From: Lentisphaerota bacterium
GTDB taxonomy: Bacteria; Verrucomicrobiota; Lentisphaeria; Oligosphaerales; JAFGRS01
Length of the DNA stretch: 33,540 nt
Assembly: GCA_012514865.1 (NCBI GenBank)
Contig: JAAYZO010000535.1
Span: 1 to 33,540, forward strand
Reading direction: 5' to 3'
Made by a program: the position numbers and the translations under genes. Each line of letters opens with the position of its first letter. The stretch's first letter is position 1. The notes below the pieces were generated by a model that was not told the DNA's origin, did not search any database, and saw nothing but the letters and a program-made list of their open reading frames with translations. This document shows positions 8,701 to 26,300 of this stretch, in pieces.

Positions 8701-11700
8701 CGCTTGAACCAGAGTTCGGCGGTGTAGGTGGTCAGCGAGAGCTCGGCGCGGGCGGCAGCGCGCAGGAGGCTGCCGGGCAGGCCGTCGAAGCGGACGCTGC
8801 GGTTCTTGTACGGATCAAGGGCGTAGTTCGGCAGGGTGCCGCTGAGGAGCTCGACGAGGTCGTCGACGCTGTCATCGTCGGAGTCGGCGGCGTAGGGCTT
8901 GGTGCCATAGACCAGGACCTCGCTGCCATCCGGGATGCCATCGCCATCGGTGTCGGCGGCCATCGGGTTGGTGCCATCGCCGAGGCCCCAGGCCGGGAAG
9001 TCGGCGACGCCATCGCCGTCGGTGTCGACGTCGAAGCCCTCGACCTGGCCGATGCCATCGGCGCCGAGGTACTCGTCGAGGTTGGTGAGCAGATCGCCGT
9101 CGGGGTCATCGGCGTTGCCATAGAGCGCCAGGACGCGGGTACGGAAGGCGGCGTCGGTCTCGCCGGGGTTCTGCGTCAGGCTGCTGCTGAAGTTGGCGAA
9201 TTCCCACCAGTCGGGCAGGTCGTCGTGGTCGACATCGGCGGGCTGGTTCTCATCGCCGACGACGACGGCCCCGGACGGGTAGGCGGCGTGCGGCCAGTTG
9301 AAGAACCAATCCGGGAGGCTGTCGACATTGACCATCGTGGCGGTGAAGTCCTCGATGGAGTGGCTGTCGATGCCGAGGCCGTCGTCGAAGCGCCAGTAGC
9401 CGACCAGGGTGGCCGGGTCGGTGGGGCTGAGGGCGGCCAGGACGAGGGTGCCGGCGGTGTGGGCGGCGATCTGGGCCGGGGTGCGGACGCCCTTCCAGAG
9501 GCGGACCTCGTCGAGGCGAGCGCCGGCCGGGAGGGCCTGCGCGAAGCCGCCGCCGACGGCGTAGCCGGCGCCCATGCTGATCTCTTCGAAGCCGGGGGTG
9601 CCGCGGGTCTTCGGGGCGGTGGCCACCGGCAGCGCGCCGGCGACAGCGCCGTCGACGTAGAGCACGAGGGCGGTGCCGTTGAGGGTGGCGGCGAGGTGGT
9701 GCCAGGCGTCGGCACTGAGGGCCGCCGCGGCGGTGACCTGCCGGCTGGCGCCGGTGCTGTCAGTGAAGCGCGCGGTCGGCCGCCCGGCGTCGAGGCCGAG
9801 TTCGAAGTTGACCGTATCGAGAGGCGCCCCGGCGTCGAGAGCACGCCGCACGACGACACCGCTGGCGGTGCTGTCGGGGATGCTGACGCGGGCCTCGACG
9901 GTCCAGGTGGTGAGCTCGTGGCGGGCCTGGTTGGCGACCACGAAGCGTCCCTCGCCGTTGAAGAGTGCAGCGCGGGCGCGGAACGGATCCAGCGAGTTGA
10001 CCGCGGCGGCGCTGGCGCTGCTCTCGGACTGGTCGCGGACGCCGTCGTCGTCGGTATCGGCGCTGAGCGGGTGGGTGCGGTTGAGGTTCTGTTCGGTGAG
10101 GTTGCTGAGGCCATCGCCGTCCATGTCCTCATCGCCGTCGAGGATGCCATCGCCGTTGGTATCGGCCCGGGTCGGGTCGGTACCGGCGAGGAACTCGTAC
10201 CAGTCGCTGAGGCCGTCGCCGTCGAAGTCCTGGCCATCGAGGCCCTGCGAGACGTTGAGCGAGCCGAAGTAGGTCAGCTCCCAGGCATCGGGCAGGCGGT
10301 CGGGCTCGCCGACGCCGCTGACGACGCCATCGACGACGATGCTGCTGTTCGGGTAGTAGCGACCGGCGTGGCGCCAGTTCTGGTTCCAGTCGGCGACGAC
10401 ATGGAGGTCCTCGCCGGTGACGCCGCCGTCATCGAACTTGAAGTAGGCGACGAGGTTGGACGGGATATCGACCTCCGGACGGCCGGCCGGGTGGGTCGGG
10501 CCGTCATTGACGACGCCGTCGTTGTCGTTGTCCACGGTGTCGGTGAGGTTGGTCTCCGGGGTCGCGTAGGGCCCGGTCAGGTCGTCGGCGACGCCATCGC
10601 CATCGGTGTCGACGCCATCGGCGGACTCATCGACGTCGCCGGGAGACGGCGGCGTGACGATGAGGTCGGTCATGTCGGCGGTGGTGAGGAGGCTATCCCA
10701 GAGGGCGATCTCGTCGAGGTCGCCGACGAAGCGCTGGCAGGTGACGCGCTTGAGGGCATTGGCGCTGGAGTCTTCGGCGAAGCCGACAACCAGGTCGCCC
10801 ATGGCGTCGGTCACCGGCGAGCCGATGGCCACGCCGGTGGTCTGCATGCGGCGGTAGGTATCGCCGTCGGCGACGAAGAGGTTCAGGTCGAAGACGCGCG
10901 CCGTGCCGTCGGACGTATCGGTATTAAGGCGGGCGACGACGAGGGTCCAGGCGTCATCCGGGATCGGGGTGCCGCTGGTGACGCGGACGGTGCGGCCGGT
11001 GACCGGCATGTCGTAGCTGAACTCGACGGTGTTGGTCGCGGTCAGCACCAGGCGGTAGGTGGCGTCGGCGCCGTTGCGGACGGTGCGCCGCAGGATGCCC
11101 TGCGAGACCGCCGAGGCAGCCGGCTTGACCCAGACCGCCAAGGTGAAGCGCGAGGGCGCGGTGGCGGCGCTGTCACTGACCACCATGTACTCCGAGCCGG
11201 TCAGGCGCAGCAGGCGCGGCACCACCGGGCGCAGGGAGTTGGTCGGGTCGGTGCCGAGGACGAAGAGTTCCTCGTAGTCGGTGAGGCCATCGTCGTCGGT
11301 GTCGGCCAGGGCCGGGTGGGTGCCGTAGACCTGCTCCTCGTAGTTCCAGAGGCCGTCGCCGTCCGGATCTTCCTCGCTGTCCGGAGTGCCGTTGCCATCC
11401 GTGTCGAAGATGCCCGGGTGGGTGCCGGCGTAGTACTCGGCGAGGTCGCTGAGGAGGTCGTCATCGGCGTCGCCGGTGCCGTCGTGGCTGAGGTCGCCGA
11501 AGTACTGCAGCTCCCACCAGTCGGCCATGCCGTCGCCGTCGGTATCGGTCCAGCGGTCGGCGTCGAAGGGATCCGTCTCGGTGGGCAGCATCTCGCGCAG
11601 GCGGGCGTCGTTGCGCAGGGTGGCGGCGTTCTCCCAGTCATTGCGCCAGTCGTGGGCCGGCATGGCGAAGTCTTCGACGTGGCCCTCGACCAGCTCGAAG

Positions 11701-14700
11701 GCCTCGCCGTCGAGGTCGTCGTTGCTGCCGGTCCAGGTGCCGTCATCGAAGCGGTAGTAGGCGACGAGGTTCGGCTCGTTGCCGGCCAGGGTCGCGTAGC
11801 GCTCGGCCTCGATCTGCTCGCGCGGGATGGCGATGTCGTAGAGGCGGACGTCGTCGACCAGGCCGCGGAAGCCGTCGGTGCCGAGGCTGCCGACCGAGGT
11901 GACGACCGGGCCGGGGCCGTTGATGGCGCAGGTCGTGCCGATGGCCTGCGAGGCCACCAGGAGGCCATTGCGGTAGAGTCGCAGCGAGGTGGTCGCCGCG
12001 TCGTAGCTGGCGGCCAGGTGCGTCCAGACGCCGCCCATGACGGCGTCGCCGTTGAGGCGGGTGACGACCTTGTCAGCGGCCAGGCTGGCGCCGGTGACGC
12101 GGACCTGCGGCTGGCCGTTGGCGAGGCTCAGCTCCCAGGTGACGTAGTGCTTGCCGGTGGCGGCCTGGATGCCGACCGAGCGGCGCGGGACAACGCCGTT
12201 GATATCGGCGGCGCTGGCGGCCTCGGGGCGCACGTAGGCGGCGATCGTCCAGGACGACAGAGCGAAGCGCCGGTCGGTGGGCATGATCAGGGCCGCGCCA
12301 TCGGCGGTGAGGTCGAGGACGCGCGAGATCTGCGGGCTGAGCGAGTCGGTCGGGTCGGTGCCGCCGATGACCTCGGCGCCGTCCTCGATGCCATCGTCGT
12401 CGGTATCGACGCGGAGCGGATCGGTGAGGCGCGCGAACTCCTGGGCGTTGGTGAGGCCATCGCCATCGAAGTCCTCATCGGCATCCGGCACGGCGTCGTT
12501 GTCGGAGTCGGCGTCGCGCGGGTTGGTCATGAGGGCCTGTTCGTAGTAGTTCTCGAGGCCATCGCGATCCGGGTCATGCGGCAGGCCGTAGTCACGGTGC
12601 GGCAGCTCGCGGGCGAGGGCGTCCTCGGTCCACATGTAGTTCTCGTCCTGGATCCAGGTCGAGGCGGTGACGCCGTGCCAGACGGCGCGCGGGTCGAAGC
12701 GGCTGTCGTCACCGCGGACGATGACCAGCTCGCCGTCAACCTCGAGTTCGGCATCGAACTTGCCGGTGAAGATATCCTGGTTGAAGGTCTCGGCGCTGCC
12801 GTCGACGAGGTTGCTGTAGCGGATGACGCGGGTGTAGGACGAGGTGCGCTCGAAGAACACCGCGATCTGGTTGTTGCCCTGGACGAGGTACGGCGTGATG
12901 TCGACCGTGGCGGCCGGGGCGACGGCAGTGCCGTTGACGTAGAGGTTATCCAGGCTGCAGCCGGGCGACCACATGCGCAGGATGGCCTGCGTGGGCACCT
13001 GGGCCAGGCGGATGTACTTGACGACACGGACGAAGGCGCCGTCTTCGCCGAGGACATCCGACTTGGTCGAGCGGTACTGCAGGTTCTCCAGCCAGGAGAC
13101 ATCGCCGTTGCCGATCGAGGTGTAGGCCGTGAAGCTGCGCATGAAGGCGACGCCGTCGATCTCGCCGGTGTTGTCGTAGACGAAGGTCGGGTCGAGGCGG
13201 AACTTGGCCCACTCGTCGAGCTGGTGGAGCTTGACCCACCACTCGGCCAGGCCGTCGCCGTCGGCGTCGTCGATGCCGCGCACGCGGGCGGCCTGCGCGG
13301 TGGTGACGGGGGCGCGGATGACGTAGGAGCGCTCGCCGAGGTGGGCGAAGTCCTCGACCGTCTCGCCGTTGTCATCGAAGCGGTAGTAGACGCGGAGCAC
13401 GTCGCCGTACTCGTAGTCGGCCAGGTCGATGGTCTCGAGGGTCGGGAAGAGGTGCCGGCGCCAGTACGCGATCTCGTCGGCGGTGCGGACCTGGGCCCAG
13501 ACGCGGACCTCGTCCACGTAGCCGCTGTCGGCATCGCTGGCAACGCCGTCGGTGAAGCCGCGGGCCATGAAGGCCTTGCCGCTGGTGCCGACGCTCGGGT
13601 CGGCGAGGGTCTGCTGCGCCAGCATCAGGATGCCGTCGCGGTAGAGCCGCAGGGTGTTCTCGGCGGGTTCCCAGACGAGGGCCAGGTGGGTCCAGGTCGC
13701 GGGGACCAGCGCCGCGGTGCTGCCGGCGCCGCCGACGCGCACGATGGCGGTGTCGGTGGCGCTGTCGCCCTTACGGAAGATGACGCCCTCGGGGACGCCG
13801 TTGTCGAGCGACAGGCGGTAGCCGACGCGGTTATCGCCCTCGAAGCGGAGGATATCGCCGGTCTGGTCGACGAGGCCGGGGTAGACCCAGGCTTCGACGG
13901 TCCAGCCCTCGTAGCCGAAGGCGAAGCGCTGGCCGAAGGGCAGCATGACGCCGAAGCCCTCGCCATGGCGCAGGGCCATGCTGCGCGGGTCGGCCATGTT
14001 GCTGTGGGCCGGATTCGGGACGCTCATCGGGTGGGTCGGGCTGGTCACCGCTGTGACCTCGGCCTTGTCCTCGGCGCCGTCGTCGTCGGTGTCCTTCAGA
14101 TCCGGGCGGGTGCCGTAGGTCTGTTCCTCGAGGTTGGTGAGGCCGTCGCCATCGGCGTCCTCATGGCCGTCGGGGATGCCATCGCCATCGCTGTCGACGG
14201 CGTAGGGGTTGGTGCCGGACCAGTACTCGTAGATCGAGGTGAGGCCATCGCCGTCGTCATCGAACTGCGAGTCGTCGTACCAGCTCCAGTGGCCATTCTC
14301 GTCTTCCCACCAGTCGGGCATGCCATCGCCGTCGGAGTCGGTCTCGCTGGGCTGGACCGGCGAGGTCGGCGCCTCGACGATCTCGGCCGTGTCGGTGGTG
14401 CTCTCGAGGACGGCGGCGTTGAACCACTCGGTCTTCCAGTCGTCGCGGTTGACGGCGAAGTCCTGGGCGGTGGCGCCGTTATCGTCGAAGATGTAGCTGG
14501 CGACGAGGCCCATCGGGAGGGCGGCCGGGGTCACCACCGGGTCGCTCGGGCGGGCCGTGACGCGGAACGGGCTGTCGTTCGGGATCGCCGTGTCGGTGCT
14601 CTCGGTGTCGCCGAGGAGGACCAGGTCGGCATGGCGCGTCAGGCGCGCCTCGCCGGCGACGGCGGCGCCCACCAGGCTCGGCTCCACCGGGCTGACCGCC

Positions 14701-17318
14701 GGGCGGTCGGCGACGGTGATGGTGTCGTTGCCGCTGAAGTCGGTACGGGCGACATTCCAGACGCAGACCGCGTCGATGTCGCCGAGGAAGCCGTCACCGA
14801 CGACCACCTCGCTGACGCCGACGGCATCGGCGCCGGGGCGGACGCTCCCGACCGGTATCGAGGTCGGGAAGCCGTTGTTGACGACGATCGAGAGGGTCTT
14901 GGCCTCGGCGCCGTAGACGGCGGCGATGTGGGTCCAGACGCCGGTCTCGATCACCGCCACCGCGGCCGCGTTGGCGGCGCTCGGGACCTGCAGGGCGACG
15001 CCGCCGTTGCCGGCCGCGTCCTTGGCGCTGACGAAGCGTGCGTACGGCCGCAGGGCCCCGCCGATCCGGGCGACGCCGAGTTCGTAGTTGACGGTCTCGA
15101 AGGTGCCATTCAGATCGGCGTCGATGCGGCGGCTGACGATGATGCCGCCATCGCTGTCGGCGGCGTCGATCTTGACCCAAGCGTCGACCGTCCAGGAGCC
15201 GCCCAGGGCAAAGCGCGGCTGGTTGGGCAGGACGAGGCGGTCGCCGGCCTGGGCGAGGCGCAGGGCGCGCGACACCCACGGCGACAGGGCGTTGTCCGGG
15301 GCACTGCCGGCGGTGACTTCGACGGCGTCGGTACGGCCGTCGTCATCGAGGTCGCTGACATCGGCACCGCCGACGGTGGGCACGCCGGGGTGGGTGCCGG
15401 CGAGCTGTTCCTGGAGGTTGCTGCGGCCGTCGCCGTCGCTGTCCAGGAGCTGGTCGGGGGTGACGCCGTCGGTGACGCCGAGGAACGGGTGCGTGCCGGC
15501 GAGGTACTCGGAGTGGTTGGTGAGGAGGTCGCCGTCGAGGTCGAGATCGGCGTCCGGCAGGGCCGGGTTGAAGTTCAGGGCGGCCTCGAACCACTCCGGC
15601 ATGCCGTCGCGGTCGCTGTCGCCGGGCAGGCTGAGGAAGTGCGCCTCGGCGGCGGCGGGGGCGTGGACGCTGACGCCGCTGCCCGCGGCCCAGGTGGCCG
15701 CGAAGCGGGCGGTGGTCTCGGCGCCGGCGGCGTCGGTGAGGGTGAAGACGTCCTCACGCTCGGTGAGGTCGAGCACGAAGCGGCGGTCGTCCATGCGGTC
15801 GTCGGCGCGGAAGCAGGCGACCATGACGCGGGCGCTGGCGAGGTCCATGGCGGCCCGGGCATTGAGGCGGCCGCCGGTGAGGACGACGCCATCCAGCGCC
15901 GGGATGCTGTCGGTGCCGTCGAGGAGGCCGGCCTTGATGTCGGCGAACGAGGCTCGCGGCGAGCGCGCGTAGAGGAGTGCGGCGACGCCGGCGACGTGCG
16001 GGCAGGCCATCGAGGTGCCGGACATCGTCTGGTAGCCGCCGCCGGGGGCGGTGCTGAGGATGTCCTCACCGGGCGCGGCCAGGTCGACCGAGGTGGCGCC
16101 GTAGTTGCTGAACCAGGCCAGGGTGTCGGTGGCGTCGGTAGCGGCCACGGCGACGATGTTGTCGTGGTCGAACGAAGCCGGGATGGCCGGGATGGCGTCG
16201 TTGTTGTTGGCGTCGTTGCTGGCGGCGGCGACGAAGAGCTGGCCGGCGCTGCGGGTGCGGCTGACGGCGTCGTAGAGGGCCTGCGAGTAGCCGTAGCCGG
16301 CCCAGCTGTTGCTGGTCAGGGTGGCGCCCATGCGGATGGCGTAGTCGATGGCCGCGATGGCGCCGGCGGTGGTGCCGCCGCCGCTGGCGTCGAGGAACTT
16401 CAGCGCCATGATGCGGACATTCCAGTTGACACCGGCGACGCCGATGCCGTTGTTGCCGACCGCGCCGATGGTACCGGCGCAGTGGGTGCCATGGCCGTCG
16501 TCGTCGATGGGATCGCCGTCGTCATTGGCGAAGTCGTAGCCGTAGACGTCGTCGATGTAGCCATTGCCGTCGTCGTCGATGCCGTTACCGGGGATCTCGC
16601 CGGGGTTCGTCCACATGTTGGCGGCGAGGTCCGGGTGGGTGTAGTCGACGCCGGTGTCGATGACCGCGACGACCACGCCGCGGCTGCCGGTGGAGCGGTC
16701 CCAGGCCTCGGGGGCGTCGATGTCGGCATCGGCAGCGCCGCCGGTCTGGCCGGTGTTGTGCAGGCCCCAGAGCTGGCCGAAGAGCGGGTCGTTCGGCATG
16801 GCCACGGCGCGGAGCTGGTAGTTCGGCTCGGCGTAGACCACGTCGGCACGCTCGCGGTAGGCGCGCAGGGCATCACGCAGGGCCATGCCGGCCGGGACCG
16901 CGACGAGGTCGATACCCAGGGCCGCGGTGCGCGACAGGACGGTGCCGCCGAGGGCGGCGTGCAGGGCGGCGCGCTGCTGGGCGCTGGTGGCCGGCTGGAG
17001 CTTGACGAGGAGCTGTCCGGGCTCGTGATCCGGGACCAGGGCCGCGTCGACGTCGGCCTGATAGACGCTGCTGAGGCCCTGGCCATAGGCGATGGCCCGG
17101 CCGCCGGCAGCGCTGTCGGCGGTGCGGAAGTCGCGGAAGATCTGCTGCGCCGGCAGGGCGCCGTTGTAGATGCGGACCTCGTCGATGGCGCCGGTGAAGC
17201 CCATGCCGAGGGTGGTCTCGGCGCCGTCGAAGATGCCGTCGGTCGAGGTCGCCATTGGCGTCGCAGGCGCAGGCGAACTCACCGGTGAGGTCGATGCGCT
17301 CGGCGACCGGCATGCCAT
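2766..17318 (-). CDS. Giant LamG/TSP3-repeat surface protein, 3' portion (frame B). Contains the I9-S8 subtilase, LamG modules 13 (C-terminal part) to 20, Ig-like repeats, a PPC domain and the C-terminal module.
   Basis: 4850-codon ORF ending at TGA 2766-2768, with recognisable domain motifs throughout (see sub-features). Roughly the first 25 residues (MACRSPSASTSPVSSPAPATPMATS) look like out-of-frame filler. Genuine sequence starts near DGIFDGAETTLGMGFTGAIDEVRIY, which is the C-terminal end of a LamG module whose body lies in the upstream ORF. This is most likely the continuation of 16873-33540 across a frameshift, not an independent gene. Confidence 0.9.
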   Translation of the reverse strand: MACRSPSASTSPVSSPAPATPMATSTDGIFDGAETTLGMGFTGAIDEVRIYNGALPAQQIFRDFRTADSAAGGRAIAYGQGLSSVYQADVDAALVPDHEPGQLLVKLQPATSAQQRAALHAALGGTVLSRTAALGIDLVAVPAGMALRDALRAYRERADVVYAEPNYQLRAVAMPNDPLFGQLWGLHNTGQTGGAADADIDAPEAWDRSTGSRGVVVAVIDTGVDYTHPDLAANMWTNPGEIPGNGIDDDGNGYIDDVYGYDFANDDGDPIDDDGHGTHCAGTIGAVGNNGIGVAGVNWNVRIMALKFLDASGGGTTAGAIAAIDYAIRMGATLTSNSWAGYGYSQALYDAVSRTRSAGQLFVAAASNDANNNDAIPAIPASFDHDNIVAVAATDATDTLAWFSNYGATSVDLAAPGEDILSTAPGGGYQTMSGTSMACPHVAGVAALLYARSPRASFADIKAGLLDGTDSIPALDGVVLTGGRLNARAAMDLASARVMVACFRADDRMDDRRFVLDLTEREDVFTLTDAAGAETTARFAATWAAGSGVSVHAPAAAEAHFLSLPGDSDRDGMPEWFEAALNFNPALPDADLDLDGDLLTNHSEYLAGTHPFLGVTDGVTPDQLLDSDGDGRSNLQEQLAGTHPGVPTVGGADVSDLDDDGRTDAVEVTAGSAPDNALSPWVSRALRLAQAGDRLVLPNQPRFALGGSWTVDAWVKIDAADSDGGIIVSRRIDADLNGTFETVNYELGVARIGGALRPYARFVSAKDAAGNGGVALQVPSAANAAAVAVIETGVWTHIAAVYGAEAKTLSIVVNNGFPTSIPVGSVRPGADAVGVSEVVVGDGFLGDIDAVCVWNVARTDFSGNDTITVADRPAVSPVEPSLVGAAVAGEARLTRHADLVLLGDTESTDTAIPNDSPFRVTARPSDPVVTPAALPMGLVASYIFDDNGATAQDFAVNRDDWKTEWFNAAVLESTTDTAEIVEAPTSPVQPSETDSDGDGMPDWWEDENGHWSWYDDSQFDDDGDGLTSIYEYWSGTNPYAVDSDGDGIPDGHEDADGDGLTNLEEQTYGTRPDLKDTDDDGAEDKAEVTAVTSPTHPMSVPNPAHSNMADPRSMALRHGEGFGVMLPFGQRFAFGYEGWTVEAWVYPGLVDQTGDILRFEGDNRVGYRLSLDNGVPEGVIFRKGDSATDTAIVRVGGAGSTAALVPATWTHLALVWEPAENTLRLYRDGILMLAQQTLADPSVGTSGKAFMARGFTDGVASDADSGYVDEVRVWAQVRTADEIAYWRRHLFPTLETIDLADYEYGDVLRVYYRFDDNGETVEDFAHLGERSYVIRAPVTTAQAARVRGIDDADGDGLAEWWVKLHQLDEWAKFRLDPTFVYDNTGEIDGVAFMRSFTAYTSIGNGDVSWLENLQYRSTKSDVLGEDGAFVRVVKYIRLAQVPTQAILRMWSPGCSLDNLYVNGTAVAPAATVDITPYLVQGNNQIAVFFERTSSYTRVIRYSNLVDGSAETFNQDIFTGKFDAELEVDGELVIVRGDDSRFDPRAVWHGVTASTWIQDENYMWTEDALARELPHRDYGLPHDPDRDGLENYYEQALMTNPRDADSDNDAVPDADEDFDGDGLTNAQEFARLTDPLRVDTDDDGIEDGAEVIGGTDPTDSLSPQISRVLDLTADGAALIMPTDRRFALSSWTIAAYVRPEAASAADINGVVPRRSVGIQAATGKHYVTWELSLANGQPQVRVTGASLAADKVVTRLNGDAVMGGVWTHLAASYDAATTSLRLYRNGLLVASQAIGTTCAINGPGPVVTSVGSLGTDGFRGLVDDVRLYDIAIPREQIEAERYATLAGNEPNLVAYYRFDDGTWTGSNDDLDGEAFELVEGHVEDFAMPAHDWRNDWENAATLRNDARLREMLPTETDPFDADRWTDTDGDGMADWWELQYFGDLSHDGTGDADDDLLSDLAEYYAGTHPGIFDTDGNGTPDSEEDPDGDGLWNYEEQVYGTHPALADTDDDGLTDYEELFVLGTDPTNSLRPVVPRLLRLTGSEYMVVSDSAATAPSRFTLAVWVKPAASAVSQGILRRTVRNGADATYRLVLTATNTVEFSYDMPVTGRTVRVTSGTPIPDDAWTLVVARLNTDTSDGTARVFDLNLFVADGDTYRRMQTTGVAIGSPVTDAMGDLVVGFAEDSSANALKRVTCQRFVGDLDEIALWDSLLTTADMTDLIVTPPSPGDVDESADGVDTDGDGVADDLTGPYATPETNLTDTVDNDNDGVVNDGPTHPAGRPEVDIPSNLVAYFKFDDGGVTGEDLHVVADWNQNWRHAGRYYPNSSIVVDGVVSGVGEPDRLPDAWELTYFGSLNVSQGLDGQDFDGDGLSDWYEFLAGTDPTRADTNGDGILDGDEDMDGDGLSNLTEQNLNRTHPLSADTDDDGVRDQSESSASAAAVNSLDPFRARAALFNGEGRFVVANQARHELTTWTVEARVSIPDSTASGVVVRRALDAGAPLDTVNFELGLDAGRPTARFTDSTGASRQVTAAAALSADAWHHLAATLNGTALVLYVDGAVAGALPVATAPKTRGTPGFEEISMGAGYAVGGGFAQALPAGARLDEVRLWKGVRTPAQIAAHTAGTLVLAALSPTDPATLVGYWRFDDGLGIDSHSIEDFTATMVNVDSLPDWFFNWPHAAYPSGAVVVGDENQPADVDHDDLPDWWEFANFSSSLTQNPGETDAAFRTRVLALYGNADDPDGDLLTNLDEYLGADGIGQVEGFDVDTDGDGVADFPAWGLGDGTNPMAADTDGDGIPDGSEVLVYGTKPYAADSDDDSVDDLVELLSGTLPNYALDPYKNRSVRFDGLPGSLLRAAARAELSLTTYTAELWFKRASTTAAEQVLLSRRSGSSVTVEIGIDATHKPFARFTYLGGSALTVTSSLTVQDATAWHHLAVVYDPRSTTGETGNFRLYLDGIMRGIVFTSITPDLPLTDLTLGGNGLSGFAGKIDDVRVWKVARSLAQINGSRFQRLSGGEANLVSYFIMDDDEWAGSALSPARYGAQDMVTNRLADSARGEGGYAFDTDVPNLLASDADGDGLPDAWEIANGLMPNDATGANGATGDPDNDGLDNLGEYRAGTRARLADTDGDGMADGWEVAYGLNPLADDAGVDLDGDGLSNIDEYLGADLVVDLVSVPPNWGDATDPLDSDTDGDGLPDGWERRYLLDATDATGVNGAAGDPDADGLTNSQERDYLTDPTDADTDGDGLPDGWEVANRLSPVDGNGRHGAAGDPDGDAASNIVEFGQGTDPNDRDSDDDDLPDGWEIRYDLNPLSAATPNGRNDDPDMDNRTNYEEYLAGTNPKVPEDETTDSDGDGLTDIQEWQPGVFTDPNLVDTDDDGADDYAEFVTGTQGYNSLSNERVNANVDLSRYAGLDYRGNLMARLETDEFLRAPGVDDALQRLAFSSWTVEARFRFRTGDDPAQRGQIDLDDHAVGEELFLVRRGFEVTTPGATADTNYAIGLKVGQNAGGKYLYPFTAWTNTADAGATPLANLRTAEVANLELFENQWYHLVGRYDSARHVLSLFLDGVLVAEQVGVPGYCPTVLPTRTAFVRFGENYAGDLDEVRIWGVDPRSLQYVDPTSGLTYYLNGATRSNAEITAFSSRTAMPVIGAYDGGLADAFNLANTDTSAYVVDRHVSQMPWTTPSGTVGRLATGVFYDDANANHAWDEGEAVWADQPGDGVLLIGTAGAYDAGIDLLIHGAAPAAATGTTRALALYYHDANADRAYQPADEDAWVDYANKASWYDAQPAPWAKAMGLALYLKFDDAGEHIEDFAWHADWRAGWMHAVLPGSANGAPLPTMDDVVMDGNDAPGMPRIRIDPATTTHEVARDAVLRVVVTLPSTDPDGLTVQYRYYWFRGVAAPTSPNAAVGFIDANGNGDWDEGEDLFEDADADGLYDLGETILVADNAALATSVTLDLARLGAAAGEVYYVVVVPVDDLGKQGPFALDYAVTTVRTAPQRPIFMSLNPDAPEVGDALTLSLRNPNATSITFLVDWYRNGEFFMSSPAAQVAANSATQVRLSGNLTRRGDLWGFMAYARDLAGGLSRPTYGSGNDPQVRVTRVIGGAANVVVDNDPPTTPTQVTVTPETAFTQDMLLCTASGSSDPDGDVFAYFYQWFRFDATAGGYLAVDGLTSPVLDEAETEPGDRWFCQVTAVDVFGNASVSVSSNPVVIAETLTGVYAYEPNNTANQARRILPKSNPLSLADTAIQDHSFVAQDDRDWFWFVVEDGPGYEQVKVTFETNGGAELWTPQHNSASDAADTVLALYSASPNGGAPRFIRQVDDIGVLRQPGSSSYARIVATLDPGIYYVQVWTNQILIDTNREYSVHLWFETPAGASGPSAPAHVVLTPAAPEITSDLVCEAGGAISPLGADAVSYRYVWYRNGLMVPFGSGAQPYEGYNYILANAKPDTSPDGSPANVVPARYTAEGEVWSCLVFAVDRNGESLGTLSNEVTIGSRSWTQSIQVDKTFTDGTPAVTQTVTIGWRSGATQGFDMGIDADLPTSIPPPGDPSGPPTGPGGVGAGTAVATTPSGSSYIIGFDQEHTRLTTDMRPYGDLTAWYLKVELGRNPGSCRIRWTDLGLPVTETPLILTRVDEGPYGELYPVSGSAVDMSAFSDITISSAEMAELLERADRDGVAPVAVFRISLGTGDRSQTISLRYGWNMISLAVEPVTSDVQSVFAFAGQPVIAGMVWAYEGGSYVPVLRVRAKVGYWVFCPFPNGATFTVHGMPTDGTLALEAGWNLVGPAVQTNALTAYGAYGIGGGNGTVNLNNIMTLNPVTMAYETVTTMVPGRAYWIEAFRRVNLPLSGPPR
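2769..3240 (-). other. Unassigned C-terminal beta-rich module with duplicated GWN(M/L)(I/V)...G(Y/A)YW(V/I) motifs
   Basis: YGWNMISLAVEPVTSDVQSVFAFAGQPVIAGMVWAYEGGSYVPVLRVRAKVGYWVFCPF...LEAGWNLVGPAVQTN...MVPGRAYWIEAFRRVNLPLSGPPR*. It contains no hydrophobic helix plus basic tail, no LPXTG and no PEP motif. Confidence 0.4.
3838..4195 (-). other. Fourth Ig-like repeat of the same type, C-terminal to the PPC domain
   Basis: PSAPAHVVLTPAAPEITSDLVCEAGGAISPLGADAVSYRYVWYRNGLMVPF...TAEGEVWSCLVFAVDRNGESLGTLSNEVTI. Confidence 0.5.
4264..4665 (-). other. Bacterial pre-peptidase C-terminal (PPC)-like domain
   Basis: YEPNNTANQARRILPKSNPLSLADTAIQDHSFVAQDDRDWFWFVVEDGPGYEQVKVTFETNGG...DTVLALYSAS...ATLDPGIYYVQVW. 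This fits the PPC layout (E.N(D/N)t...A..l, D.DW(f/y).F, D..l.LY, GtYYv.V). Confidence 0.65.
4685..5780 (-). other. Three Ig-like beta-sandwich repeats (approx 5345-5780, 5015-5335, 4685-4988)
   Basis: Recurrent pattern: P..P..v.(l/v).P..p...d.L.C.a.g.sDPDGD...Y.Y.W(F/Y)R.g......L......GD.W.C.V.A.D..G..s..v.S..V.I. Example: NDPPTTPTQVTVTPETAFTQDMLLCTASGSSDPDGDVFAYFYQWFRFD...PGDRWFCQVTAVDVFGNASVSVSSNPVVI. I cannot assign a family name. Confidence 0.5.
7150..8115 (-). repeat. Dense run of TSP3/EF-hand-like calcium loops organised as about 5-6 tandem 52-64-aa units
   Basis: The units begin D(A/T/S)DGDG(L/M)(P/A)D(A/G)WE(I/V/R), continue through ..G..G..GDPD.DG(L).N..E(Y), and end ..GT(D/N)P.D.. 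For example: DTDGDGLPDGWERRYLLDATDATGVNGAAGDPDADGLTNSQERDYLTDPTDA followed by DTDGDGLPDGWEVANRLSPVDGNGRHGAAGDPDGDAASNIVEFGQGTDPNDR. Confidence 0.75.
12670..13180 (-). other. Galactose-binding-like jelly-roll insert (copy c)
   Basis: ..FVRVVKYIRLAQVPTQAILRMWSPGCSLDNLYVNGTAVAPAATVDITPYLVQGNNQIAVFFERTS...EVDGELVIVRGDDSRFDPRAVWHG. Clear paralog of copy b. Confidence 0.45.
15834..16793 (-). other. Subtilisin-like serine peptidase domain (MEROPS S8) with intact catalytic triad
   Basis: The catalytic Asp lies in VVAVIDTGVDYTHPDL (codon 16656-16658). The His lies in DDDGHGTHCAGTIGA (codon 16491-16493). The Ser lies in MSGTSMACPHVAG (codon 16011-16013). An oxyanion-region Asn occurs in VAAASNDANNN. 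There is a Ca-binding-type insertion GNGIDDDGNGYIDDVYGYDF. I checked all three triad codons against the nucleotide sequence. Confidence 0.9.
16803..17018 (-). other. Peptidase inhibitor I9-like subtilase propeptide (internal)
   Basis: GQLLVKLQPATSAQQRAALHAALGGTVLSRTAALGIDLVAVPAGMALRDALRAYRERADVVYAEPNYQLRAV. It has the typical ..v.f....s......a...G..v.........v......a...l......V.yaEPn... propeptide layout and sits directly N-terminal to the S8 domain. Confidence 0.6.
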
Positions 17319-20300
17319 CGATGTAGAGGCGCAGGGTGCGGGTGTTCTGGTCGAAGGTGGCGGCGAGGTGGGTCCACTCGCCGGCCGTCACGGCCAGGCC
17401 AGCCAGGCCGGCCCCGCCGACCTTGAACTCGCGGCCGTTGGCCATGACCAGGCGGGCGTACGGGCGCAGGGCGCCGTCAGCCTCGAGGCCGAGGTCGTAG
17501 TTGATGGCCTGCACCGCGGTGCGGCGCTGAATGACATGGCCGGCGGCCTCGGGCAGCACCCAGGCCTGGACCGTCCAGCTCGCGGCCGCGTACTTGGCCT
17601 GGTCGGGGATGATCACCCCGGCGCCGGCGCTGGCGAAGTCGAGGTGCTGGCGCTGCGGCGGGTAGACATTGCTCAGCGGGTTGAGCGGGTCGCTGGCGTA
17701 GGCATCGACGGCGGCCTGGCGCGGCAGGCCGAGGCCGGGGTACATCTGCTCGCCGAAGACCTCCTCGGCGTCGGTGAAGCCATCCGCGTCGCTGTCGGCG
17801 AGGCGCGGGTCGGTGCCGAAGCGCTGCTCGAGGCCGTTGATGAGGCCGTCGCCATCGCTGTCCTCTCGGAAGTCGCCGGCGCAGTCGTCGCAGTCGTCGA
17901 GCTGATCCGGGTGCGTCCCGCAGAGGAACTCGTAGAGGTTGTTCAGGCCGTCGTTATCCGGGTCGGCGAGCGGGTCGTCGACGCGGTAGAAGACCTCGAA
18001 CCAGTCGGCCATGCCATCGGCGTCGCTGTCGTCGAAGCCGTAGAGGCGCAGGGCCTCGTCGGTGCCGATCCAGTCGGCGGTGCCGTCAGCGTCGGTGTCG
18101 CCGACGCCGTAGAGGGCCGCCGGGATGGCGTGCGTGTCGGCCTGCTCCCAGCCCGGGTGCGCGAAGTCCTCGATGGACATGCCGCCGTCGTCGAAGCGGA
18201 AGCAGCGGAACAGCCCGGTGGCGCTGGCGGGGACCAGCTCCCAGCGCGCCCGGTCGATCTGCGCGGCGGTGCGCGCCGTGGTCCAGATGCGGACCTCGTC
18301 CAGGCAGACGCTGCTGGTCGACCAACTCGGGAAGGCCGCCAGGGTGAAGGAGCCGACGCCGCTGGCCGGGGCGTAGTCGAAGTCGGTCTCGCGGAACTCC
18401 AGACGGAACTGCGAGGCGCCGTTGAGCAGGAGGCTCAGGGTGCGCTGGCGGCTGTCCCAGGTCGCGGCCAGGTGCGTCCAGGTCGACGGCGCCAGGGCGA
18501 CGTCGGCATCGAGGCGCTTCTCCGTGCCGCGATCGGTCTGGTAACGGACGTAGGGCCGGCCGGCGGCGATGCCGAGTTCGAAGGTGGTCAGGGCGCCCAT
18601 GCTGCGGCGCACCAGGACACCCGTCTCGCTGCTCGGGTCGTCGGCGCGGAACCAGGTCTCGACCGTCCACTCGGGCATGAGCTGGGCGCGCTCGGTGGCC
18701 AGGAGGGGCACCGAGAGGCCGCTGGTGCGGCCGGCCTGGCTGACCAGGAAGTGGCGGGCCACGGCCGGGCTCATCGAGTGACGCGGGCTGGTCAGGCCGG
18801 TGACTTCGTCGCCGTCCTTGAGGCCGTCGTCGTCGGTGTCGGCATTCCGCGGGTCGGTCTGGTACTGCTGTTCCTCGTAGTTGGTCAGGTCGTCGTTGTC
18901 GGTGTCCTCGGCGCTGTCGAGGATGCCGTCGTCGTCGCTGTCGGGGTTGGTCGGGTCGAGGTCAGCGAGGTACTCGTAGAGGTCGTTGAGGCCATCGCCA
19001 TCCTGGTCGCCGGTGCCATCCGAGACGGTGATATCGCCGAAGTAGTGGATCTCCCACCAGTCGGCCATGCCGTCGGCGTCGCTGTCGACATCCCAGAGGA
19101 CCGGGCTGGCGCCGCCGAGGTCGATGACGTCGGCCGTGCCGCGCAGGGCGGCGGCGTTGGTCCAGTTGCGGTTCCAGTCGCCGCTGTTGGCGATCAGGCT
19201 GTCCTGGGCGGTCTCGCCATCGTCATCGAAGCGGTAGTAGGCCACCAGGCCGGCCTCGTCGCCGACCAGCAGGCCGGTCATCGTCGCGGCGACCTCGTCG
19301 GCCGTGCGGACGCTGCCCCAGATGCGGACGTCGTCGATGACGCCGGTGAAGCCCTCGCCGATGCGGGTGTAGGCGACGCCGGGGCCGGAGCGCACCGGAG
19401 CGGTGGTGCTGCGGCGGTCACGGGCCTGAGCGCCGTCGAGGATCAGGGTCAGGGTGCGGGTGGTGTCGTTGTAGACACCGGCCACGTGCGTCCAGGCCAG
19501 GCCGTCGGCCGTGATCGGCTGCAGCGAGGTGGCGCGCACCATGGTGCCGCGGCCGTCGCTGTAGCAGGCCTCGACCTTGCCGTCGGGCAGGAGGTGCAGG
19601 GCGTAGTTGATGTTGAGCTGGCCGGCCTTGGTGCCGACGACGCGCTCGACGATGCGGGCGGTGGTGCCGGCGGCCGGGAGGGCGCTCGGCCGGATCCATG
19701 CCTCGATCGTCCAGTCGGTCAGCGCAAAGCGCGCCTGCAGGGGCAGCTCGGCGTAGGAGCCGGCCGTGCCGTCGAGGGCCAGGCCGCGCATCACCGTCGG
19801 GCTGTTGCCGTCGGTCGGGTCGGAGCCGGCCGTGACCTCGACGCCGTCCTCGAGGCCGTCGTCGTCGGTGTCCTTGGTGACCGGGTCGGTGCCGAAGAGG
19901 TCCTCACGTGAGTTGGTGAGGCCGTCACCGTCGAAGTCCTCGTCGCCGTCAGCGATGCCGTTGTTGTCGCTGTCGCGGTCCATGGGGTTGGTACCCAGCA
20001 TGAACTCGAGGAGGTTGGTGACGCCGTCGAAGTCCGGGTCATTGGCAATACCGTAGTCCTGGTGCGGCGGGAAGTGGCCGCTGTAGTCGGTCCAGGGCTG
20101 CTGGGTGGTGCTGGTACGGCCGTGCCAGACGGTGCGCGGGTCGAACTTATGGTGGTCACCGCGGACGATCACCTCGCGGCCGTCGACGGTCAGGGCGGCG
20201 TCCATCTTCATGCTGGCGCGCGGCCAGGTGTAGGCCTGGACCGGCCACGGACGATCCTGCAGGACCGGGGCCTGCCCGCCGGGGTTGTAGACCCAGAAGC

Positions 20301-23300
20301 TGGGCGGCACCACGAAGTAGGTGGAGGTGCCGCCGCCGGTGTCGCGCAGGCGCAGGTAGATCTGGTTGCGGCCGGCGCGCAGGTAGGTCGCGATGTCGAC
20401 GGTGCCGGTGCCGGCCAGTCCGACGCCGACGCCGTTGACCGTCATCTGGTCCACCGCGCCGTTCGGCAGGAGCAGCTCGAAGGGCGCCGTCTCCGGAGCG
20501 CGGTCCAGCACGATGTACTTCATCAGGTGCATGAACATGCCGGAGTCGTAGTTGATGATCGACTTGGTCAGCACGGTCATCAGGTCTTCGACGTAGTTGG
20601 TCGTCGTGCCGATCGAGCTGAAGACCGTGAAGTCACGGACCATGTGGCCGCTGCTGGAGAGCGGCGAGGGCAGGTTCGCGCCGGTCGGGACGGCGGTGTG
20701 CGGGCCGGGGTTGCCAGCGAGCCAGCCACCGGGCGGGGTGAAGTAGCCCTCGGTCATCTGGCCGTCGACATTCAGGTCGTTGCGGGTGTCCGTGAAGGGC
20801 GCGCCCCAGATCATCTGGCGCCAGTTGTTGAGGTTGTGGAGGCTGACCCACCATTCCGGGAGGCCATCGCCGTCGTCGTCATCGACGCCACTGAGAGGCG
20901 CGGCCTGGTCCTCGGTGAGGGTGGCGCCGGCGAGGGCGTAGTCCTCATCGCGGAAGGCGCGGAAGTCCTCGGCGAGGAGGCCGGCGTCGTCGAAGCGGTA
21001 GTAGAGCCGCAGGACGTCGCTGTAGAGGTAGATGGTCCGGCTGGCGAAGGGGTTATCGGCGTCGGGGATCAGCTCCTGGAGGGCGAGCTGCGGGCTGAAG
21101 CTGCCGGTGTCGATGGTCTCGTAGGTCGGGATGATCTCATCGCGCCAGCGGTTCAGCTCCTGCTCGGTGCGGGCCTCGCCCCAGACGCGGATCTCGTCGA
21201 GGTGGCCGCTGGTCAGGTCGCGGCCGACCCAGGCATTGCCGGCGGCGATGGTCGGCACCGCCAGGGTCTGCTGCGCAATCAGCAGGATGCCATCGCGGTA
21301 GAGGCGCAGGCTGTTATCGGCCGGGGCCCAGACGACGGCCAGGTGGTGCCAGCTCCCGACGGGCACCGCCGGCACGGCGGCGCTGCCGCCGACCTTGACG
21401 ACGTCGGCCGTGCCGCTGAAGATGCGGCCGACCGGGGCGCCGTCCTCGAGGCCGAAGCTGAAGCTCTGGCCGTTGACGCCTTCGTAGAGGAGGAACGAGC
21501 CGGTCTGCGTCGTGACGTCGGCGGCGGCGCGGTACCAGGTCTCGAGGGTCCAGGCGGTCTGGCCGAAGGCGAAGCGCTCGGGATGCGGGATCTCGAGGCC
21601 GCGGCTGGCGGTCTGGGCCGCCAGGGCAGCGAGGTCGAGGCTGGCGGGCTTGAAGTTCGGCCGGCTCATCGGGTGGACCGGCGAGGTGGCCGCGTCGACC
21701 TCGGCCTTATCGTCGTAGCCGTCGTCGTCGCTGTCGGTCAGGCGCGGGTCGGCGCCGTGGGTCTGCTCCTCGCGGTTGGCGAGGCCGTCGCGGTCGAAGT
21801 CCTCGTTGCCGTCGGTGACGCCGTTGTTATCGGTGTCGGTGTCGTAGGGGTTGGTGCCGACGTAGAACTCGTAGAGGTTGCTGAGGCCATCCTGATCGAG
21901 GTCGCTGGTGGCGTCGAGGGCCAGGGCCGGCTCGCCGCTGTGGACATCCTCCCACCAGTCCGGCAGGCCGTCGGCGTCGCTGTCGTCGATGCCCTTCATC
22001 GTCTTGGCGTCGGTGGTGACCGTCCAGTCGGCATGGCCGTCGCCGTCGGCGTCGGTGACGCCGTAGCTCCCTGCCAGGAGACTGTATTTCAGGACATCAC
22101 GGTGGGCCGGGTGGCCGTAGGGCCGGGTGAAGTCCTCGATGGCCATGCCGCCGTCGTCAAAGCGGTAGTAGGCCAGGAGGCCGGTGCCGGAGACGATGCT
22201 GTCGCGGCTGGCGCGGACCTGGGCCAGGGTCATCGCCGCGGCGCGGATGCGCACCTCATCGACAAGGCCGCTGGTCAGCGTGGCGCTGCCGGCGGCGCTC
22301 TCGGCCATGCCGTTGCCGCCCACGTACATCGACCCGACGCCACTGACAGGGCGCTCGAGGGCGATCGTCTTGTACTCCAGCACGCCGTCGACGTAGAGGC
22401 TCAGGGAGTTCTGAGCCGCGTTGTAGCTGCCGGCGATGTGGTACCAGCGCCCGGGGGTCAGTTTGGGCGCGACGTTGACGCCGCCCGCGGTGTAGGGCTT
22501 GTTGCTCTCGGCCTGGAAGCGGCTGTAGGGATAGCCGTCCTTCACGCCGATCTCGGCGGCGGTCCGGCGGCGGACCTGGACGCTGATGATAGCGCCGGTG
22601 TCGTCGTCGGCCAGGCGGACCCATGCCTGCAGGCTCCACGCCTGGGCCAGGGCGGCGGTGCGATCGCCGTCCGGCAGGGCAATGCCGCTGTTGGTACCTG
22701 TCGCGACAGCGTCATTGACCGTGGCCAGGTCGAGGCTGCGCGGCGGCGTCAGGCGGTAGTTCCCCAGGCTGTCGACCGGGACGGCGGTGTCGAAGTGAGC
22801 CATGGAGTAGAGCGGGCTGGTGATGTAGTGCGGACGGTCGGGGCTGCCGTCGGGGGAGCCGAACAGCTCCGCGTCATCGCGGACGCCATCGTCGTCGGTG
22901 TCGACCAGGCCGGGATGCGTGCCGAGTTCCTGCTCCTCGCCATTGGTGAGGGTGTCCCCGTCGGTGTCGTCGTGGTAGTCGTCGGTACCGTTGTGGTCGG
23001 AGTCGGCCTCGTTGGGGTCGGTGTCGGCGTAGTACTCGTAGAGGTTGCTCAGGCCATCGCCGTCGGGATCGGCCAGGCTGTCGTCGACATTCGGGTCGGT
23101 GCCGTTCTCCTGTTCCCAGAGGTCGGGCATGCCGTCACCATCGGAGTCACGCTCGCCGGAGACGGCGTTGTCGGAAGCGAGTGTGGTGCCGTTCCGGTTG
23201 AGGGCGTGTGACCAGCCGGTGAACCAGTCCATGCGCCGGGCGAAGTCCTCGTAGGTCTGGCCGCCGTCGTCGAACAGGAAGGCGTACACGAGGCCGTTGC

Positions 23301-26300
23301 GCTCGGTGCCGAGCGAGTAATGCGGCAGCATCACCCAGTTGGTAGCGGCGCGGGTCAGGAAGCTCTCTGTGACCGCGCTGCTGACGCCGCCGGACCAGGA
23401 AGCGCGGATCTGGGCGGCCGTGCGGACGGTGCGCCAGAGCACGACGTCGTCGAGGCCGCCTTTGAAGCCGCTGTAGTCCACCGAGCCATTCTCGGGGAGT
23501 CCGGCGCCGATGGTGGTGCCGGCACGCCCCTTGACGTTGGTGGGCGGGGCGTCGGTAACGCCGGAGAGGCTGCGCTCGAGTTCGCCGCCGACGTAGAGGC
23601 GCAGGGTCCGCTCGGTATCAGAGAACGACCCCGCGATATGCGTCCAAGTGGTGCCGTCGGCGATGACCGGGCTGTTCGCGGTCAGGAGCCAGGCGGTGCC
23701 CTGGGCGGTCTTGAAGCCGACGTACGGCTTGCCCTCGGCGTCGAGGCCGATCTCGTAGTTGGTGGCGTAGTAGTACTGGTCGCTCTCGTTGGGGTACTCG
23801 TCGTCGGTCCCCGTCGGCAGTTTGCCGTACCGTCCGACGGCGCGGCGCAGGATGACGCCGTTGAGAGCGCCCTCGTCGGGCTTGATCCACGCCTCGACCG
23901 TCCAGTCGAGATAGGAGTTGGGATTCCAGAACCAGTCGTCGACCTCCGGCACGGTGAGGACATCCTGACCGGTGAGGCGGAGGTGGCGCGGGCGGCTGGG
24001 TATGAGGCTCGACACCGGGTTGAAGCTGCCCTTGACCTCATCACCGTCGTCGAAGCCGTCGTCGTCGGTGTCGAGGAGGTTCGGCATGGCTCCGGGGTAG
24101 CGCGCCACGGAGCGTTCGATGCCATTCATGAGGCCATCGCCATCGCCATCCTCTTCGCCATCGGGGATGCCGTTGCCGTCGGTGTCGTCGTCGAGCGGGT
24201 TGGTGTTGCAGAGGAACTCGGACCAGTTGTCGAGGCCGTCGCCGTCGGGATCCTGGTCATAGGCCCACTTGGCCAGGCCGTAGAAGCGTTCGGTCCAGAA
24301 GTAGCGGATCGGGGTGCCGTCGGCGCGGTAGTTGTGCACCTGGTCCGCCGACTCCTGGTAGGGAGGCAGACCCTGCATCTGGAACCACTCGACGTTGCCC
24401 TGCTCATTGGCCATGCGCACGCCGTTGACGAAGACCTCGCCCCAGAACTCCAGGGGCCAGACCGGCGTGTCGGCATCGAAGTGCTCGAAGTGCACGGTGA
24501 TGCGGTTGCGCCCGGCATAGAGACGGGTGCGAATGCCGTTGACGAGGTCCAGGGTATCGACGGCGCCGGCGGCGAGGTTGCCGAAGTAGTCATGCGGGAG
24601 GGAGACGGCCGTGTCGGGGCCGCCGACGCGTTCGCCGTTGACCCAGATCCAGAAGCGGTTGTACGACCCAGTGCCGCCCACCGGCCCGCCGTAGGAGAAG
24701 CGGAAGATGGCGCTTTCGACCGTTTCGGTATCGAGGAAGAAGTCGGTCACGAAGGTCCGCGCATCGGGGTTTTCGCCGATGAAGGTCCGGGCCGGTATCT
24801 CCTGGTCGGTCACCGCGTCGATGTACGACGAACCGCTCCAGTACTCGGGTTCGGGGTCGAAGCCGGTATAGGGGAAGTCGAGGTCATACCAGCCGCCGGC
24901 GGCGGCGCCGAAGTGGAGCTGCTGCCAGCCATCGGGGATGGGGTCGAACTCGGTGTTGCCGGTGCCGATCATGGCGACGGCCACATCGCTGTCGAAGTAC
25001 GGACGGGACTCGGCCGGGAAGCGCCGGCCGAGTGCAGTCAGGGCGTGCGGCCAGTCCGTGCGCCACTCGACCTGAGTGTCATAGGCGAAGTCCTGGGCGC
25101 CGACCGGCAGATCACCGCTGGCGGCGTGGCCGTCGTCGAAGCGGTAGTAGGCCGTCGGCGTGTTCACCGGGTCGTCATTGCCCAGGCCGACCTGCGGCAG
25201 GGCCGTGGTCATCCATTCGCGCAGCTCCTGCTGGCTGCGGATGCGCGAACGCGTCAGGGTGAGCGTCCAGATGCGCACTTCGTCCAGGTTGCCGGCGAGG
25301 TACATGCCGTCGCGCTCGCCCATCAGCTCGGTGGTCCAGTCGGAGCCGTTGCCGCTGATGATGTCGTCGGCGCGCACCATGACGGCGCCGGCGAAGACGC
25401 CGTTGATGTACAGCCGGATGGAGTTGGCGCTGTTCTCCCAGGCCGCAGCGAGGTGGACCCAGCCGGAGGCGACCGTCAGCGGCAGACCGTGGCGTGCCAC
25501 GATCTCGTAGTCGAGGCCGTCCAGGCCGCGGGTGCGGGCATAGGGCAGGCCATCGCGCAGACCGAGTTCGAAGGCACTGCCGACGCCACGCTGGTGGCGA
25601 CGCATGAGGCTACCGGTGTTCTTGGCGTCGTCGCCAAGGCGGAACCAGCACTCCACCGTCCAGTCGGAGCGCAGGCTGTTGCGGCTGGCATCGAAGCGTT
25701 CGTCGGCGGGGATGGTCAGCACCTGAGCGGCGTCCCCGGCCGGGAACTTCAGGCTACGCCAGATCAGAGGACTGAGCGGGTCGAGCGGGCCGCTGCCACG
25801 GCGCTGGACCTGGCGGTCGATGCCGGCGTCGTAGCGGCGATTGCCGTTGACCTCGCACCAGAGGTTCTCGTTGGAGTCCCAGGCGCCACTGGCGTTGGTG
25901 TCATAGAAGTAGACGCCACCGATGGCATCGGGGTTGATACCGGGAACCGCGTCGCGGCTGCTCCAGTCGTCACTGCCGCCATGGACACGGCGGTCGTGGT
26001 CGGCGTCGTAGCGGCCGGCGGTGCCGCCGGCGATATCCTGCCAGATGTCCTCGGTCGGGTCCCAGACGCCGTCGAGGTCAGCGTCAGCGAAGGCGATGCC
26101 GGTCTGGATGACCAGAGCGCCCTGGCTGCCATCGGCGAGGACCCAGGTGTCGGCGGTGACCTCGTCGTAGTCGATGAGGCCATCGTCGTCGGTGTCGCGC
26201 TTGCCCGGGTGCGTCCCGATCAACTGCTCGTACTGGTTGTTCAGGCCGTCGGCGTCGCCGTCTTCGGCAACATCCTCGGCGCCGTCGCCATCGGTATCGA

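Follow-up and report, generated by a model that had tools for sequence, protein, structure and literature searches.

A two-base deletion found in a single record divides one giant LamG and subtilase gene of a Lentisphaerota bacterium into two open reading frames

The window analysed here is a stretch of 33,540 nucleotides (G+C, 69.8%) of a Lentisphaerota bacterium (assembly GCA_012514865.1, contig JAAYZO010000535.1). Its minus strand carries two giant, overlapping open reading frames (ORFs): ORF A (33450..16873, 5,525 codons, frame A) and ORF B (17318..2766, 4,850 codons, frame B). We found strong support for the two ORFs being one giant gene, in which the coding frame switches between positions 17242 and 17241, at residue 5403 of the repaired protein and inside the thirteenth of its LamG modules. 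The protein contains 20 such modules, as counted with a profile that we built from its own modules. The parts of the gene around and on either side of the break are as follows.

17242..33540, minus strand: true coding part of ORF A, with LamG modules 1–12, most of module 13 and TSP3 repeats; the reading frame extends to the window edge without a stop, and third-position G+C (GC3) is 0.94 in frame A.
17130..17634, minus strand: LamG (Laminin_G_3) module 13 of 20, cut by the break; residues 5273–5441 of the repaired protein, placed by profile and module alignment.
17241..17242, minus strand: break point, two bases missing (CC on the plus strand, GG on the coding strand); the window reads GACCTCGAC followed directly by CGACGGC, and other sources read GACCTCGACGGCGACGGC.
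16873..17241, minus strand: out-of-frame tail of ORF A, 122 Arg-rich codons that are a +1 reading of the real frame; the G+C periodicity here is that of frame B.
17241..17318, minus strand: out-of-frame head of ORF B (MACRSPSAS..PMATST), its first 26 codons; the GC3 of 0.94 here is that of frame A.
2766..17240, minus strand: true coding part of ORF B, with the end of LamG module 13, a subtilase prodomain, an S8 protease, LamG modules 14–20, TSP3 repeats and 1,244 C-terminal residues; the stop is at 2766–2768.
16821..17030, minus strand: fervidolysin-type subtilase N-terminal prodomain (PF22148, Fervidolysin_NPro), residues 71–140 of the translation of 9819–17240 (E = 4.6e-15).
15921..16682, minus strand: Peptidase_S8 catalytic domain (PF00082; E = 8.6e-55), with the Asp (VIDTGVD), His (HGTHCAG) and Ser (GTSMACPH) motifs all present.

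Frame A reads ..TLRLYIDGMPVAERIDLTGEFACACDANGDLD, with LamG text through ..GEFACACDANGDLD, and then continues as the 122-codon Arg-rich string, which ends at the stop codon at 16873. In frame B, ..SPAPATPMATST is followed by DGIFDGAETTLGMGFTGAIDEVRIYNGALPAQQI. When each part was compared with Laminin_G_3 (PF13385), the frame-A part aligned to profile positions 4–108 (52 bits) and the frame-B part to positions 110–150 (24.2 bits, which on its own is below the gathering cut-off of 27.6 bits). Joining the two frames gave a match to positions 4–150 of 151 at 77.5 bits, roughly the sum of both partial scores, and it was only with the frames joined that module 13 had a full-length match. Because of this profile coverage, and because the G..DEVR.W strand is conserved in 20 of the 20 modules, neither half of module 13 would be expected to fold alone. 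The third-position signal gave the same picture: the GC3 of 0.94 belongs to frame A until the break is reached and, from exactly that point on, to frame B. As the periodicity above the break belongs to frame A, the ATG at 17318 arises by chance in the wrong frame and is not a genuine start. We sought a Pfam family match for the tail of ORF A and a family match for the head of ORF B, and found none for either. Beyond the break, 4,824 codons are free of stops, and the S8 triad motifs and the seven later LamG modules are intact. The original prediction, made by a model from the letters and their ORFs, had described a frame break inside LamG module 13 whose two sides make exactly one module, an Arg-rich tail of about 125 codons running to 16873, and a frame B that stays open and rich in domains with no further lesions. 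Pfam, GC3 and the module map bear out its coordinates and module number, the joined profile match bears out the single module, and the prodomain, protease, seven LamG modules and TSP3 repeats between 17240 and 2766 bear out the open frame.

The break lies in an inserted loop, DANGDLDGDGIFDG, which the module alignment identifies as specific to module 13. On the coding strand, sequences from elsewhere read GACCTCGAC(GG)CGACGGC at this site; the junction in the window is GACCTCGACCGACGGC, and the intact allele is GACGGCGACGGC. Restoring the two bases yields the text ..CDANGDLDGDGIFDGAE.. / ..CDANGDLDGDGIFDGAETT..; a single ORF then runs from the ATG at 33450 for 10,228 codons without a stop, and the peptide ..CDANGDLDGDGIFDGAETTLGMGF.. 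serves as a marker of the intact allele. Removal of one base, which had been proposed as the repair, does restore the frame, but the real lesion is a deletion of two bases rather than one surplus base, and the intact text DANGDLDGDGIFDG is one residue longer than the DANGDLDDGIFDG that had been expected. Tandem Repeats Finder detected no homopolymer or tandem tract at the break (17100–17400). The sole local repeat is GACGGC, present twice, and the lost GG is not in a homopolymer of three or more bases.

Public metagenome runs were compared with the window as Logan contigs aligned to 16900–17600; such contigs drop rare variants and hide minority alleles. The contigs of 14 runs (X1–X8, X10, X12, X13, X16, X17 and X18) carry CC behind plus-strand position 17241, and in a fifteenth, X9, the contig end reads CC+GTCGAGG just beyond 17241, which is consistent with the CC allele. 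These 14 explicit runs and one consistent run come from ten studies of wastewater, sludge, digesters, bioreactors and fuel cells, although two of them, X5 and X6, look like identical data. Because X8 and X10, both with CC, are metatranscriptomes, the intact allele is probably transcribed, with DNA carry-over a possible source of these reads. The window's allele was present in none of the 15 runs that cover the site. Nor did any run match a 60-nt query designed so that each of its 31-mers crosses the window junction; this is weak evidence, as only two words were sampled. Among JGI metagenome contigs, neither a gapped DNA pattern for both alleles nor the junction protein found a match.

One of these runs, X12, represents the window's own strain or haplotype: its listed contigs differ from the window by 9 mismatches in about 6.4 kb and share the short allele at 17471, and they still carry CC at the break. 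A second allele in X12, suggested by a depth of 9 versus 3.5 at 17241, was rejected when re-alignment at a 1% threshold returned a single contig, with CC. Six further same-strain runs (X33–X37 and X39) have no contig that spans the site. In X36, a contig alignment ends exactly at 17242; this fits the CC allele and was left out of the count.

Relative to the window, the common strain in these metagenomes carries about 1.6% substitutions (169 in 10.6 kb) and no out-of-frame indel. Against four runs over the whole window, the other indels are 3-nt differences at 16195 and 17471, both in frame, and 1-nt differences at 146 and 2746, both intergenic. In the giant gene, all indels besides the break are therefore of 3 nt in this comparison.

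17471, minus strand: in-frame indel polymorphism CGC, giving one extra Gly in most populations; absent from the window and from X12 and X14, two runs of the same strain.
16195, minus strand: in-frame 3-nt indel polymorphism, CGC or CGT, between strains.

X12 and X14, which share the short form at 17471 with the window, are 2016 bioreactor metagenomes. Near the break, positions 17154–17186 (33 nt, encoding the ..DEVRIYNGALP.. strand) align with 1–3 mismatches to unrelated contigs at depths of 70–720 in many runs; this presumably reflects a similar LamG motif in an abundant organism that occurs alongside.

Related genomes also carry the two bases. When one genome per species was scanned, four loci emerged, of which three are relevant. 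Two of them, L001 and L003, are contigs of the metagenome-assembled genome (MAG) 'Verrucomicrobia bacterium WAS_Bin_35', 99% and 91–96% identical to the window, and the third, L002, belongs to an uncultured Victivallales MAG with 76% nucleotide identity. All three are in frame at the site, reading DLDGDG or DTDHDG. L002 reads ..YANGDTDHDGVFDG.. there and keeps a single open frame over all 20,999 nt compared, about 10 kb on either side. Between the window and L002, the ratio of nonsynonymous to synonymous substitution rates (dN/dS; a rough NG86 estimate) was 0.37 over the 3,000 codons before the site and 0.26 over the 3,000 after it, and we therefore consider both halves to be maintained as coding sequence in the clade. 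L003 has a frame break of its own in LamG module 13, at L003:8373, where 136 nt corresponding to window positions 17455–17587 are missing. On one side of this gap L003 is 91% identical to the window and on the other 95.6%, and its joint was seen in no Logan run; the lesion is probably a chimeric join of two strains. A homolog search with the junction plus the S8 domain was dominated by ordinary S8 proteases, none of which spanned the junction, and a search with the junction only gave nothing at E ≤ 1e-10, so that this database supplied no ortholog at the protein level.

Together, the 14–15 runs and the three loci in other MAGs, including the 76%-identical ortholog, all of them in frame, strongly support the reading of the two ORFs as one giant gene. 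The original prediction had named orthologs split into two genes by a genuine stop and start as the finding that would speak against it; the opposite was found, as L001, L003 and L002 all read through. Could the window nevertheless be correct as it stands, with two genuine genes separated by a stop and a restart, or with programmed frameshifting or transcriptional slippage at the junction? Free-standing S8 proteases do start with the same prodomain, so that a protease-led gene could look plausible. However, the break cuts a LamG domain in two, and GC3 puts the terminal 122 codons of ORF A and the initial 26 of ORF B in the wrong frame. Recoding is opposed by the orthologs and conspecific populations, which are in frame without a frameshift site. 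The sequence GAC CTC GAC CGA CGG CAT in the window also contains neither an X XXY YYZ heptamer nor a stop or hungry codon. We regard both forms of this explanation as extremely improbable. A decaying, fixed pseudogene was rejected as well, given a single, unshared lesion, 4,824 stop-free codons after it, intact domains and a dN/dS of 0.26.

The deletion was thus seen in this sequence alone and was absent from every other source examined. One possible explanation is that the indel is either a standing polymorphism or a reversible, phase-variable switch, by which the protease half is disconnected from the LamG adhesin half. The break does sit close to a natural domain boundary, as the prodomain begins about 170–210 nt further downstream, and module 13 of L003 has another frame-breaking lesion of its own. 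The locus also resembles phase-variable contingency loci in having a frame-shifting indel in a very large surface-protein gene. Unlike those loci, it has no simple-sequence tract or change in repeat units, and its off allele was seen in no population: none of the 15 runs shows an off state, with the reservation that contigs can hide minority alleles. The flanking pair of GACGGC repeats would yield changes of 6 nt and not 2 nt, and the lesion in L003, at the jump in identity and with a joint found in no run, looks like a chimeric join. We therefore judge such a switch or polymorphism to be very unlikely. A related idea, that the deletion is real and persists at low frequency, serving as a natural off state or split, is at least as doubtful. 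If it were true, only the half with 13 LamG modules and TSP3 repeats would be expressed and the protease-led half would be silenced just upstream of its prodomain, with the split falling near the point at which the protein's own S8 domain may cut the intact product anyway. The nearness of the break to the prodomain boundary is most simply a coincidence, and the break is without designed function. The original prediction had offered three causes for the break. Two of these, a sequencing or assembly indel and a recent inactivating mutation, remain; an on/off state that is polymorphic in the population is unsupported, because the window's allele is in no run and there is no repeat tract.

Between the two remaining causes, we slightly favour an uncorrected consensus or assembly deletion in this record, to which we assign a probability of about 0.5. 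Loss of the two GG bases from the loop of LamG module 13 would lead a gene caller to see a 5,525-codon ORF with a nonsense tail and a second, overlapping 4,850-codon ORF with a nonsense head. This reading is supported by the absence of the allele elsewhere, even in the same-strain run X12. In addition, short-read contigs of this repeat-rich giant gene break every 0.1–10 kb and the window is contiguous over 31 kb, which hints at long-read data. Deletions are the main residual error in such data. A published case of a giant gene split in just this manner (bioRxiv 10.1101/2023.11.21.568195) also counts in favour of this cause.

Several observations weigh against an assembly deletion. The source reads could not be found, as no public run contains more than 0.70–0.90 of the window's words: the best share was 0.70 for a 10-kb query and 0.90 for a strain-specific query dense in SNPs. 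Exact look-ups of the ORF B protein and of its EF-G-like neighbour likewise gave no record. The window has no other indel relative to X12, which marks the assembly as otherwise accurate rather than error-ridden. The lost GG is in neither a homopolymer of at least three bases nor a repeat tract, an atypical context for long-read error and for systematic sequencing error in general. Finally, because rare variants are lost from Logan contigs, a minority allele might be present without having been seen. The accuracy of the assembly and the context of the lost bases also favour the other cause, a real and very young loss-of-function allele private to the strain or sample, as would the size of the gene, since 31 kb would be a large mutational target. 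The lack of downstream decay, with the S8 triad and the seven later LamG modules intact, is what a recent mutation would leave. Against such an allele, it was seen in 0 of 15 runs, including the same-strain X12, and the junction query matched no run; moreover, purifying selection acts on both halves in the clade, and a null allele would accordingly be expected to be uncommon and soon lost. We consider a real deletion to be a serious possibility that falls somewhat short of an even chance. A real deletion would truncate the product after 5,403 good residues and a 122-residue nonsense tail, and would remove the last strands of LamG module 13, the prodomain and protease, seven LamG modules and the 1,244 C-terminal residues. 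The protease-led C-terminal half would then not be made or not be exported, because ORF B has neither a real start nor a signal sequence.

The giant gene extends past the window. Its frame has no stop across 33451–33540 on the minus strand, and the text at the edge, ..LSPLVYHAVIVDGSATS, resembles the lead-in of other LamG modules, so that the start lies outside the window and the ATG at 33450 is not the start. The gene has at least 10,259 codons inside the window and runs off at 33540. Its product is best explained as a secreted or surface protein composed of the 20 LamG modules, the calcium-binding bacterial TSP3 repeats, which we found in both halves, and the subtilase prodomain and S8 domain in mid-protein. 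With family matches to both domains and the Asp, His and Ser motifs in place, the latter pair qualifies as an S8 subtilase behind its prodomain; mycosin-like and PrtP-like matches of the S8 domain fall under the family cut-offs. A propeptide just downstream of the break had been foreseen, and one is there, but it belongs to PF22148 and not to I9, and it begins about 170–210 nt after the break rather than about 230. The last 1,244 residues (2769–6500, minus strand) gave nothing above noise in Pfam and NCBIfam searches. The extreme C terminus has GWNLVGP and GRAYWIE-type motifs, which could mark an uncharacterised anchoring or sorting domain.

The prodomain–S8 order and the Asp, His and Ser motifs are those of fervidolysin-type subtilases (PF22148 and PF00082). 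The best homologs of this part are 57–63% identical and are free-standing proteases that open with that prodomain; here, by contrast, it follows LamG modules and TSP3 repeats that together span about 5,470 residues. By analogy with these enzymes, the giant protein may cut itself after the prodomain, near residue 5,560, independently of the break.

West-Roberts et al. (2023, bioRxiv 10.1101/2023.11.21.568195) report that Verrucomicrobiota often have genes this large and that S8 domains might cleave giant proteins into pieces. Like the giant proteins (10,000 amino acids or more) of the Planctomycetes–Verrucomicrobia–Chlamydiae (PVC) superphylum, the protein described here has more than 10,000 codons, repetitive domains of extracellular type and an S8 peptidase, and its host belongs to the PVC group, with the nearest MAGs labelled Verrucomicrobia and Victivallales. 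It is far below the Omnitrophota cases of 30,000–85,000 amino acids. Its S8 domain lies in mid-protein behind its own prodomain, whereas theirs lies near the N terminus, and its architecture is one of LamG modules and TSP3 repeats. The same study described two adjacent giant genes on one contig that became one gene of 74,983 amino acids after a local assembly error was corrected (bioRxiv 10.1101/2023.11.21.568195). Here, too, two giant ORFs fuse once two bases that are present elsewhere are restored, although in our case the error is deduced from other samples and not from the source's own reads, and a private mutation is nearly as likely. We regard the feature as an ordinary one.

On the plus strand, a 4,754-codon 'ORF' at 3024–17288 lies antisense to the giant gene and is a shadow of its GC3 bias (0.94) and not a gene, and the long plus-strand ORFs at 17170–19911, 20062–23211 and 23320–29814 are likewise antisense shadows. 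About 25–60 nt past the stop of the giant gene, at 2690–2745 on the minus strand, a G+C-rich inverted repeat is followed by TTTT (GGGGCCAGCCCACCTCGGGCCGGCCCCGTGGGCTTTT) and looks like an intrinsic terminator. The 1-nt indel between strains at 2746 adjoins this repeat. The downstream gene (227–2293, minus strand) encodes an EF-G-like translational GTPase with GTP_EFTU, EFG_III, EFG_IV and EFG_C domains; the plus-strand ORF that overlaps it (83–2326) had no family match.

For annotation, these results call for a single entry in place of the two giant ORFs: a gene exceeding 10,259 codons and bearing a frameshift, to be either corrected or annotated as a possible pseudogene. Two separate protein entries would have ends that are invented. 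More generally, where source reads are unavailable, the frame break of a giant gene can be assessed against independent public metagenomes. Independent of its break, the giant gene is a moderately interesting member of the giant surface proteins of the PVC superphylum.

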